From the NCBI RefSeq assembly GCF_013167455.1, contig NZ_CP038328.1: 64,000 nucleotides of DNA. One strand, given 5' to 3'. A program made the position numbers and the translations under genes. Shown piece after piece: positions 16,443 to 51,107 of this stretch. Position 1 is the stretch's first letter. Every line of letters begins with the position of its first letter. Below the pieces are notes generated by a model. It had not been told where the DNA came from. It saw only the letters and a list, made by a program, of their open reading frames with translations, and searched no databases. This DNA is from Escherichia coli O157:H7. GTDB lineage: Bacteria > Pseudomonadota > Gammaproteobacteria > Enterobacterales > Enterobacteriaceae.

Positions 16443-16525
16443 CCCAGAGGTATTGATAGGTGAAGTCAACTTCGGGTTGAGCACATGAATTACACCAGCC
16501 TGCGCAGATGCGCAGGTTTTTTTTT
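16443..16525 (+). ncRNA. omrB: OmrB small regulatory RNA (Hfq-dependent, OmpR-regulated)
   Basis: Sequence CCCAGAGGTATTGATAGGTGAAGTCAACTTCGGGTTGAGCACATGAATTACACCAGCCTGCGCAGATGCGCAGG followed by a T-run; recognised as OmrB. Confidence 0.85.
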
Positions 16526-16639: not shown

Positions 16640-16727
16640 CCCAGAGGTATTGATTGGTGAGATTATTCGGTACGCTCTTCGTACCCTGTCTCTTGCACCA
16701 ACCTGCGCGGATGCGCAGGTTTTTTTT
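16640..16727 (+). ncRNA. omrA: OmrA small regulatory RNA (paralogue of OmrB)
   Basis: Sequence CCCAGAGGTATTGATTGGTGAGATTATTCGGTACGCTCTTCGTACCCTGTCTCTTGCACCAACCTGCGCGGATGCGCAGG followed by a T-run; shares 5' and 3' ends with OmrB. Confidence 0.85.
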
Positions 16728-45073: not shown

Positions 45074-45150
<77 letters not shown>

Positions 45151-45183
45151 TCACCGTACTGCTTTTACTTCATCAAATTTGAT

Positions 45184-45260
<77 letters not shown>

Positions 45261-45293
45261 TCACCGTACTGCTTTACTTCATCAAATTTTAAT

Positions 45294-45370
<77 letters not shown>

Positions 45371-46764: not shown

Positions 46765-46862
46765 GCCGGATGCGGCGTGAACGCCTTATCCGGCCTACAA
46801 ATCATGCAAATCCAAAATATTGCAGGAGTTATGTAGGCCTGATAAGCGTAGCGCATCAGGCA
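46765..46862. repeat. REP / BIME-like extragenic palindromes between mltA and tcdA
   Basis: GCCGGATGCGGCGTGAACGCCTTATCCGGCCTAC (46765-46798) and GTAGGCCTGATAAGCGTAGCGCATCAGGC (46834-46862) are typical REP sequences in opposite orientation. Confidence 0.65.
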
Positions 46863-48215: not shown

Positions 48216-49420
48216 TAATCCACCAATAATTCCAGCGCGCGGTCAACGGCATTCACCAGCGCATCCACATCACTCTTTGTATTATATGGCGCAAAAGAGG
48301 CGCGCAGTGTGCCGGTCACGCCTAATTCTGCCAGTAGCGGCTGAGCGCAATGTTGCCCGGCCCGCAAGGCAATACCGTACTCCGCCAGCAGCGTCACCAT
48401 ATCGCTGTGATGAACGCCAGCAAAATCAAAGGCCAGCAGGCTGGAATCCTGGCAGCGGAATGAACGAAAGCCTGGACGTTTCGCCAGCGCATCTTCCGCC
48501 AGCGTTGCTAAGCTACGGCTCCAGTTTTCGGCCTGGTTGATATCGTAATCTGCCAGCCATTCCAGCGCCGCGCTTAATCCTATGACACCAGCCACATTTG
48601 GCGTTCCTGCTTCCAGTTTCCACGGCGCAGATTGAGTCGTGAAGCCGTCAAAACTCACTTCGTGAACCATTTTGCCGCCGCCCAGCCAGGGCGACATCGC
48701 TTCCAGCAGTTCTGATTTGCCATACAGCACGCCGATACCCGTCGGGCCATACAGTTTGTGACCAGAGAAAGCATAGAAATCGATATCCAGTTGCTGAACA
48801 TCCGCGGGGAAATGCACCGCCCCCTGAGCACCATCAACTATCACCACTATCCCGGCTGAATGAGCAAAGGTAATCGCTCGCGCCAGATCCGGGCAACCGC
48901 CAGTTACGTTCGACATCTGACCCAACGCCAGAATCCGACTACGGGGAGTAATCAGTTCCGGCAGCAAATCGACATCTGGCAGTCGCTGCGCATTAAGCGG
49001 CAATTTGACCACTTTGGCTCCAGTTTGTTGGGCGACCATCAGCCAGGGGACGAGGTTGGCGTGGTGTTCTGCCACGCTGACAATAATCTCATCGCCCGGT
49101 TGTAGACGCGGACGCGCATAGCATTGTGCCACCATGTTGATGGATTCAGTGGTGCCGCGCGTCCAGACGATAGTTTTATCATCCGGTGCATTCAGTAATT
49201 GCGCCACTTTCTCTCGTGCAGCTTCATAACGCGCGGTCAGGCGTTGGGCTTCGGCAAACTGGCTGCGATGGACGTTTCCGGCGCTCAGACTGTAAAACTG
49301 TCGGGTGGCTTCAACCACGGCTTCAGGTTTAAGCGCGGTCGCGGCGCTGTCGAGATAGACGCCCGCATCCTGTAGAGCGGGAAACTGGGCGCGAAACTGC
49401 GCGGGATTAAAAACGTTCAT
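48215..49420 (-). CDS. csdA: cysteine desulfurase (cysteine sulfinate desulfinase)
   Basis: ORF-track ORF is 413 aa; CsdA begins [35 protein letters not shown] at ATG 49420 (401 aa). Confidence 0.92.
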
Positions 49421-49611
49421 GGTACTCCTCGGCTTGATGCACCGATCGTGACGCAAAATTCACTTTGATACAAGGAGAGTGCTAACCATCAGAATTATCT
49501 GGATATCCTGGCGAAGCCGCGTCAGTAACATATGCTGAATAGTGTTAGGCGTTAATTTTAGCCTGTTAATCAATACTATTAAGATTTATTAATCGCTTTA
49601 AGGAGAAGATG

Positions 49612-49839
49612 ATGAAAAAGACTGCCGCAATTATTTCTGCCTGTATGCTGACTTTTGCCCTGAGCGCCTGTTCCGGTTCGAACTATGTGATGCACACCAA
49701 TGACGGACGTACCATCGTCTCTGACGGCAAACCACAGACTGATAACGATACCGGTATGATTTCGTATAAAGACGCTAATGGCAACAAACAGCAGATCAAC
49801 CGTACCGACGTGAAAGAGATGGTCGAACTGGATCAGTAA
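49612..49839 (+). CDS. ygdI: small lipoprotein (DUF903)
   Basis: Signal peptide plus lipobox LSAC; 75 aa from second Met; paralogue of ygdR. Confidence 0.85.
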
Positions 49840-49855
49840 TTCGCGATCGCAAGGT

Positions 49856-50061
49856 AAAAAAAAGCACCGCAATTAGGCGGTGCTACATTAATCACTATGG
49901 ACAGACAGGGTAAATGTACAGGAAGTGAAAAAAGGTAGCTTTGCTACCATGGTCTGAATCGCAGACCAATTGCAAACACAACAACACAACATCACAACCG
50001 TAAGCCAAAAGTTCACCAGAACACGCATTCCGATAAAACTTTTCGTTCCGGCTCAGGAAGT
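49856..50061 (-). ncRNA. gcvB: GcvB small regulatory RNA (Hfq-dependent)
   Basis: Plus strand 49856-50061 is the reverse complement of the GcvB sequence (5' ACTTCCTGAGCCGGAACGAAAAGTTTTATCGGAATGCGTGTTCTGGTGAACTTTTGGCTTACGGTTGTGATGTTGTGTTGTTGTGTTTGCAATTGG..., terminator hairpin GCACCGCCTAATTGCGGTGC plus T-run); divergent from gcvA. Confidence 0.9.
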
Positions 50062-50189
50062 GCCGCCACTATAGGTATTTGCTGGTAGAAGCTCAACGGA
50101 CAATTTATAATGGCTCAGATTAAAAAAACTAATAGGTTACACAGTGTGATCTAATTGTTAAATTCATTTAACATCAAAGTTTAAAAGCC
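50062..50189. promoter_or_regulatory. gcvA-gcvB divergent control region
   Basis: 128-bp gap between the gcvB 5' end and the gcvA start; individual GcvA sites not mapped. Confidence 0.5.
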
Positions 50190-51107
50190 ATGTCTAAACG
50201 ATTACCACCGCTAAATGCCTTACGAGTTTTTGATGCCGCAGCACGCCATTTAAGTTTCACTCGCGCAGCAGAAGAGCTTTTTGTGACCCAGGCCGCAGTA
50301 AGTCATCAAATCAAGTCTCTTGAGGATTTTTTGGGGCTAAAACTGTTCCGCCGCCGTAATCGTTCACTCCTGCTGACCGAGGAAGGGCAAAGCTATTTCC
50401 TCGATATCAAAGAGATATTTTCGCAATTAACCGAAGCGACGCGTAAACTCCAGGCCCGTAGCGCCAAGGGGGCGTTGACGGTCAGTTTACTCCCCAGTTT
50501 CGCCATTCATTGGTTGGTTCCGCGACTTTCCAGCTTTAATTCAGCTTATCCGGGAATTGACGTTCGAATCCAGGCGGTTGATCGTCAGGAAGATAAGCTG
50601 GCGGATGATGTTGATGTGGCGATATTTTATGGTCGGGGCAACTGGCCGGGGCTACGGGTGGAAAAACTGTACGCCGAATATTTATTGCCGGTGTGTTCGC
50701 CGCTACTGCTGACTGGCGAAAAACCCTTGAAGACCCCGGAAGATCTGGCTAAACATACGTTATTACATGATGCGTCACGCCGTGACTGGCAGACATATAC
50801 TCGTCAATTGGGGTTAAATCATATCAACGTTCAGCAAGGGCCAATTTTTAGCCATAGCGCCATGGTGCTGCAAGCGGCTATTCACGGGCAGGGAGTGGCG
50901 CTGGCAAATAACGTGATGGCGCAATCTGAAATTGAAGCCGGACGTCTTGTTTGCCCGTTTAATGATGTTCTGGTCAGTAAAAACGCTTTTTATCTGGTTT
51001 GTCATGACAGCCAGGCAGAACTGGGTAAAATAGCCGCCTTTCGCCAATGGATCCTGGCGAAAGCCGCTGCTGAACAAGAAAAATTCCGCTTTCGTTATGA
51101 ACAATAA
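50190..51107 (+). CDS. gcvA: LysR-type regulator of the glycine cleavage system
   Basis: 305-aa ORF starting MSKRLPPLNALRVFDAAARHLSFTRAAEELFVTQAAVSHQIK. Confidence 0.95.
   Translation: MSKRLPPLNALRVFDAAARHLSFTRAAEELFVTQAAVSHQIKSLEDFLGLKLFRRRNRSLLLTEEGQSYFLDIKEIFSQLTEATRKLQARSAKGALTVSLLPSFAIHWLVPRLSSFNSAYPGIDVRIQAVDRQEDKLADDVDVAIFYGRGNWPGLRVEKLYAEYLLPVCSPLLLTGEKPLKTPEDLAKHTLLHDASRRDWQTYTRQLGLNHINVQQGPIFSHSAMVLQAAIHGQGVALANNVMAQSEIEAGRLVCPFNDVLVSKNAFYLVCHDSQAELGKIAAFRQWILAKAAAEQEKFRFRYEQ

Follow-up and report, generated by a model that had tools for sequence, protein, structure and literature searches.

The closest described relative of the RNA treated here is GcvB of Escherichia coli K-12 MG1655, reportedly described by Urbanowski et al. 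in 2000, whose 206 nt and gene order (csdA, ygdI, gcvB, gcvA, ygdD, rlmM) are the same as those found in the window, by which we mean the whole 64,000-nucleotide stretch of E. coli O157:H7 DNA that was analysed. DapZ, a 3' UTR-derived sRNA of Salmonella, represses oppA and dppA via Hfq with a GcvB-like G/U-rich seed, but its locus and RNA body are unrelated and it is not under GcvA control, and hence it is a functional analogue of GcvB and not a member of the family. GcvB potentially regulates ~1% of E. coli and Salmonella mRNAs (PMC4474525), and its Hfq-dependent repression of targets is known for the identical K-12 sequence (PMC9299463, PMC4474525). Three pairing regions have been published; R1 is the main seed, which represses translation and whose deletion relieves repression, while R2 and R3 are additional or redundant seeds (PMC9299463). 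The Stauffer laboratory has described GcvB species of ~130 nt and 206 nt that arise from the terminators t1 and t2; ~90% of E. coli GcvB transcripts end at t1, and repression of oppA and dppA needs the 206-nt form (PMC1557403). GcvA activates gcvB when glycine is present and represses its own overlapping promoter, GcvR antagonises the activation, and the GcvA footprint extends over 48 bp of the gcvA-gcvB region (PMC5002191, PMC1557403), in which the element IR1 is centred at -65 with the motif ATTA-n7-TAAT / CTAAT, and IR2 lies at -43 (PMC5002191). GcvB is removed through RNase E by SroC, a gltI-derived sponge RNA (PMC4474525).

The GcvB RNAs of other Enterobacterales, such as Yersinia (PMC1557403), Serratia, Photorhabdus and Proteus, share SL1, R1, SL2, SL3/t1, R2, R3 and t2 with that of the window, and, as in the window, gcvA is divergent and the promoter and GcvA box are conserved. 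The top of SL1 varies freely among them, and R1 of the Yersinia, Serratia, Photorhabdus and Proteus RNAs is 8 nt shorter, lacking an extra UUGUGUUG unit. This unit (49982-49989, nt ~73-80) is an insertion relative to the Rfam consensus that the window shares with Citrobacter-, Enterobacter- and Kluyvera-type sequences, and it is absent from Pasteurellaceae too. The Pasteurellaceae GcvB (e.g., that of Pasteurella multocida, PMC5900567), represented by 17 loci with Rfam scores of 87-127 bits, keeps the R1 core GAUGUUGUGUUUGCA, the R2 block CACUUCCUGUA and a divergent gcvA homologue of 46-54% identity, but differs from the window in its 5' end and SL1, and has a short unrelated hairpin instead of the enterobacterial R3 ACCCUGUCUGUCCAUAGUGA.

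Identity and genomic context of gcvB

An earlier note on this DNA had placed the 206-nt GcvB sRNA on the minus strand of 49856-50189, with a G/U-rich stretch and divergent transcription from gcvA. An Rfam cmscan of the whole window returned a GcvB (RF00022) match at 49856-50061 on the minus strand, covering model positions 1-204 of 204 with 199 bits (E = 1e-46); the family's gathering score is 42 bits, and the absence of such a match was what the earlier note had named as refuting its reading. The same match was reproduced by a permissive Rfam rescan of 49400-50500 on both strands, which besides GcvB gave nothing except a sub-threshold match to Hrs13 ('Hfq-regulated sRNA 13') over the R2-to-terminator part (49856-49927, minus strand; 28.1 bits versus a gathering score of 52). 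Hrs13 itself may represent a piece or a relative of GcvB. The minus strand of 49856-50061 is a 206-nt sequence, ACUUCCUGAGCCGG...GCACCGCCUAAUUGCGGUGCUUUUUUUU, which opens with ACUUCCUGAGCC and closes with a G+C-rich hairpin and U8. Alignment to GcvB, which had been proposed as a check besides the Rfam scan, gave 206 identities in 206 positions with gcvB of K-12 MG1655 (b4443, 2942696-2942901, 'small regulatory RNA GcvB'), and in 357 aligned columns there were just two SNPs relative to K-12, which fall in the gcvA leader and thus not within the RNA. The claimed G/U-rich stretch exists, GTTGTGATGTTGTGTTGTTGTGTTTG being the exact reverse complement of 49973-49998 (GcvB nt 64-89), and the divergence from gcvA is borne out by gcvA at 50190-51107 on the plus strand, confirmed by an NCBIfam GcvA match. 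As for the range, the sRNA gene occupies 49856-50061 only; the remaining 50062-50189 is the 128-bp gcvA-gcvB control region and lies outside the RNA gene.

It is as good as certain that the E. coli gcvB gene, encoding the GcvB sRNA, occupies 49856-50061 on the minus strand and is transcribed and regulated as published; no observation contradicts this. The gene is already known and well characterised, stands in its canonical context (tcdA, csdE, csdA, ygdI, gcvB, gcvA, ygdD, rlmM, fucR) and presents no novelty; since the sequence is identical to the experimentally characterised gcvB, nothing new follows from it. A 1.1-kb query around the locus was found in 5425 of 5426 complete E. coli genomes, with 100% identity to O157:H7 and other strains (the window, a piece of E. 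coli chromosome, agrees at 100% with O157:H7-type strains throughout), and the 206-nt RNA is present at an identity of at least 99% in 5389 complete E. coli genomes. RefSeq PGAP records (e.g., NZ_AP018488.1) have no feature at the gcvB position, and the curated K-12 record alone annotates the gene; automatic annotation would therefore miss it, while an Rfam scan detects it immediately.

Several observations concern the distribution of the locus and its surroundings. One of the 5426 E. coli genomes gave no match to the gcvB locus, one match fell on a plasmid-typed record, and a few genomes had the locus in two places. In E. coli OkiPb01677 (L128, NZ_AP042483.1, locus 2501-4060), an IS4-like ISVsa5 lies between gcvB and ygdI, and gcvB is broken after nt ~125, such that R1 is intact and R2, R3 and t2 are split off from it. 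Elsewhere in the window, tandem Rfam OmrA-B matches at 16443-16524 and 16640-16727, both on the plus strand (86.1 and 96.6 bits; gathering score 40), correspond to omrB and omrA, an sRNA pair that is already known, ~33 kb from gcvB. An Rfam ES036 (CssrF) sRNA match at 46798-46840 on the plus strand (46.5 bits versus a gathering score of 37.6) lies just upstream of tcdA. Three tandem tRNA-Met (CAT) genes at 45074-45370 on the minus strand, spaced by 110 bp, are presumably the metZWV initiator tRNA cluster.

Architecture and conservation of the RNA

With GcvB nt n corresponding to window position 50062-n, the gene and its parts are as follows.

49856-50061, minus strand: gcvB, full-length GcvB sRNA (RF00022, 199 bits; 206/206 identical to b4443)
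50003-50053, minus strand: stem-loop 1, SL1 (nt 9-59), from the Rfam consensus structure
49973-49998, minus strand: R1, G/U-rich single-stranded seed (nt 64-89), unpaired in the Rfam consensus
49950-49968, minus strand: stem-loop 2, SL2 (nt 94-112), helix 5
49928-49948, minus strand: stem-loop 3, SL3 (nt 114-128), with U6, the internal terminator t1 (terminator scan: GGTAGCAAAGCTACC + TTTTTT)
49915-49927, minus strand: R2, conserved CACUUCCUGUACA block (nt 135-147), upper-case and unpaired in the Rfam consensus
49891-49908, minus strand: R3 pairing region (nt ~154-171), inside the SL4 loop
49885-49917, minus strand: stem-loop 4, SL4 (nt 145-177), enclosing R3 (Rfam consensus; arms nt 145-149 / 173-177)
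49856-49884, minus strand: terminator t2, hairpin AGCACCGC/GCGGTGCT (nt 178-199) and U8 tail (terminator scan)

In this numbering, G156, G160 and C162 are the residues that were mutated (G156C, G160C, C162G) in PMC9299463, an agreement that confirms the 5' end of GcvB. The t2 site of the terminator scan is AGCACCGCCTAATTGCGGTGCT with a U-tail at 49884-49856, U8 occupying 49856-49863, and the predicted hairpin with this tail is the typical 3' module of an Hfq-binding sRNA. The minimum free energy of the single sequence is -62.1 kcal/mol (z = -3.6 versus shuffles); in its centroid fold only nt 67-70 of R1 are paired, in a long-range helix that is foreign to the family consensus.

Homologues were collected by scanning species-representative genomes for the pattern TGTGTTTGCA-N30-60-CACTTCCTGT, which gave 120 loci, of which ~111 are real GcvB in Enterobacterales and Pasteurellaceae. 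The other 9, in unrelated phyla (their taxa include WOR-3, Bacteroidales, Paenibacillus, Treponema, Woesearchaeota, Borreliella and Chitinophaga), were taken as chance occurrences; none of them gave an nhmmer match or a gcvA hit, and L096, the sole one of them that was run against Rfam, was negative. The nhmmer search with the single E. coli GcvB sequence missed nearly all Pasteurellaceae GcvB, which the Rfam covariance model recovered. Divergent and adjacent gcvA accompanies the RNA in 96 of the 97 loci with a GcvA homologue in the examined DNA, the exception being a split hit. One homologue (L118:5575-5805) carries an insertion of ~30 nt in the SL1 loop, resulting in a 231-nt GcvB.

The Rfam structure was projected onto an alignment of the window with 56 dereplicated homologues (57 in total), in which the scan pattern itself makes its two 10-nt blocks invariant. 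A standard pair is formed by 85.8% of cells, versus 33-46% when the 3' partners are slid by 1-3 columns; compensatory change occurs in 24 of the 47 pairs across the 57 dereplicated homologues, and the observed covariation score was reached by none of 500 shuffles. SL1, which comprises helices 1-4, is 78-95% paired with compensatory change in 11 pairs. In SL2 (helix 5) 4 of the 8 pairs show such changes, among them a U-A pair that is C-G in 11 sequences and a G-C pair that is A-U in 9. In SL3 (helix 6), 5 of the 6 pairs are compensatory and 94% of cells are paired; the t2 hairpin (helix 8) is also 94% paired, with 4 compensatory pairs. In SL4, 71% of cells are paired across the 57 homologues and no pair is compensatory, its 5' arm lying in sequence that is invariant in Enterobacterales. 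On this comparison, four of the five predicted helices (SL1, SL2, SL3 and the terminator) are supported by compensatory change, and SL4 is without such support, which hints that R3 may be open constitutively.

The unpaired regions are conserved in sequence. All 57 homologues have the R1 core, an identity partly forced by the scan pattern, whereas the R1 positions T74, T76, G77 and T79-T81 lie 5' of the pattern and are invariant without being forced by it; the same holds for T133, T134, A145 and A147, which flank R2. R3 is invariant across Enterobacterales and missing in Pasteurellaceae.

Control region, flanking genes and rival readings

Upstream of gcvB, the following elements were recognised.

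50190-51107, plus strand: gcvA, LysR-type activator of gcvB and gcvTHP (NCBIfam NF008352, 512.8 bits, cutoff 288; RefSeq)
50068-50096, minus strand: predicted gcvB sigma-70 promoter (promoter scan, 9/12 match)
50119-50133, no strand assigned: GcvA box IR1, ATTAAAAAAACTAAT, ATTA-n7-TAAT, containing CTAAT (from the sequence; 50124-50133 conserved)
50097-50111, no strand assigned: weaker GcvA half-site IR2, centre -43 (position from PMC5002191)
50134-50189, plus strand: variable gcvA leader, without conserved blocks and holding the two SNPs relative to K-12

The gcvA start lies 128 bp from the 5' end of the divergent gcvB. The gcvB promoter consists of a -35 TTGAGC (50096-50091), a 17-bp spacer and a -10 TATAGT (50073-50068) that stops 7 bp short of the first base of the RNA. 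In an alignment of 33 Enterobacterales intergenic regions, both hexamers are kept, and conservation is restricted to the gcvB-proximal 72 bp (-1 to -72, 50062-50133), after which it ends. The far longer gcvA-gcvB spacers of Morganella (L021) and Serratia (L017, L051) still contain the -1 to -72 block. The centre of the IR1 element, 50126, is at -65 from the gcvB start, the exact position of IR1 in PMC5002191, and the GcvA box, the presumed cis element for glycine-induced control, is present and conserved there. The number of CTAAT copies in the window (60 observed versus 105 expected) was dropped as uninformative, and a second copy at 50151-50155 was discarded, as it sits in the non-conserved gcvA leader; the copy at 50129-50133 draws its weight solely from conservation and position. 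Conserved positions further include 50098-50103 and 50105-50112, and IR2 overlaps a conserved plus-strand TATAAT (50106-50111), which is suited to be, and may be, the -10 of gcvA.

On the other side, the convergent ygdI, with its stop at 49839 on the plus strand, ends 16 bp from the 3' end of gcvB. The terminator scan found no plus-strand terminator-like site for ygdI anywhere in 49840-50400, and within 49840-49890 the t2 hairpin, read on the plus strand, is preceded by A8 and not followed by a T-run. Thus either t2 would be bidirectional or ygdI read-through would run antisense to GcvB, a proposition that we regard as unlikely; it is likewise a minor possibility that the target range is altered by the 8-nt extension of R1, which is specific to Enterobacteriaceae. 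If true, ygdI read-through would be a cis-antisense layer on the control of a global regulator.

Two other readings of the conserved sequence were weighed against that of a trans-acting sRNA. The transcript might be a small mRNA or have a dual function, with the 46-aa ORF at 49888-50028 on the minus strand (MRVLVNFWLTVVMLCCCVCNW...) as its coding part. An ATG-initiated frame of 46 codons does exist on the sense strand inside GcvB, and 45 of 101 GcvB homologues contain ORFs of 40-49 codons, but an open frame is to be expected here because of the G/U-rich, A-poor composition. Of the 57 dereplicated homologues only 21 have the corresponding ATG, the C-terminus exists among close relatives in three versions that are out of frame with one another (lengths of 9 to 58 aa), and the variable columns are spread evenly over the codon positions (12/16/15); moreover, the ATG lies within the SL1 hairpin with no upstream Shine-Dalgarno sequence. 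A coding function of this ORF was rejected in view of the lack of conservation of start, frame and length and of any third-position bias, and we hold the reading to be highly improbable.

Alternatively, the sequence might be conserved mainly as a cis element, for example as the 3' UTR and terminator of ygdI or as the upstream regulatory region of gcvA, and not as an independent RNA gene. The 16-bp distance of the ygdI stop from gcvB, with t2 as the sole terminator-like structure downstream of ygdI, would suit this reading, as would the additional role of the GcvA box in the autoregulation of gcvA (PMC5002191). Nevertheless, the terminator scan calls t2 on the minus strand only, where U8 follows the hairpin, whereas ACATTAATC follows it on the plus strand; the covariation fits a minus-strand RNA across the whole 206 nt; and the constant partner across two orders is gcvA, not ygdI. 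The chance that the cis reading is correct is negligible, and the sequence is read in what follows as the gene of the GcvB sRNA.

Target pairing and mode of action

The earlier note had held that the G/U-rich stretch pairs with amino-acid transporter mRNAs. R1 (nt 60-95) was compared by ViennaRNA duplexfold with -90..+30 of four published targets from the K-12 record, and the start regions of 46 long ORFs of the window served as background (-20.2 +/- 3.7 kcal/mol).

gltI: -40.1 kcal/mol, site AACAACACAAACACUCACAAC; beats all 46 background regions, z = -5.3 versus shuffles
dppA: -29.9 kcal/mol, site AACAACAAACAUCACAA; top 2% of the background
oppA: -23.1 kcal/mol, contains CAACAUCACC; not separated from the background
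sstT: -25.8 kcal/mol, contains GACAACACAA; not separated from the background

The duplex model predicts strong pairing of R1 with the leaders of gltI and dppA, two known targets, both leaders being C/A-rich. Duplex energy is a crude target test, as it ignores accessibility and Hfq, and it failed on oppA and sstT. No C/A-rich R1 site was found in any long-ORF start region of the window. The claim of transporter pairing stands, like the other elements of the note's reading; it was too narrow in that R1 is one of three published pairing regions, and in that amino-acid transporters are only part of the published targets, which also include biosynthetic enzymes and regulators.

The proposed course of events combines two sources. 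The control by GcvA and glycine, the Hfq dependence, the repression and the turnover by SroC and RNase E are taken from published work, which for the last three concerns the identical sequence, and this analysis contributes the identity and boundaries of the RNA, the conservation of its structure, the synteny, the conservation of the promoter and the box, and the complementarity of R1 to gltI and dppA. The gcvB gene would be transcribed from the sigma-70 promoter, with the GcvA box at its upstream edge; at abundant glycine GcvA would activate it, with GcvR counteracting, and from the same site the divergent gcvA promoter would be repressed. Transcription would stop internally at t1, giving ~130 nt, or at t2, giving 206 nt, and the full-length GcvB would bind Hfq. 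The unstructured R1, and secondarily R2 and R3, would base-pair with C/A-rich stretches that lie within or close to the ribosome-binding regions of many mRNAs whose products serve amino-acid and peptide uptake and biosynthesis; the pairing would block translation of these mRNAs and promote their decay, and GcvB itself would be removed by the SroC sponge RNA via RNase E.

The importance of the locus in this genome is one of correct annotation only, and the RNA that is to be annotated there is one that ties the availability of glycine to amino-acid uptake and biosynthesis.
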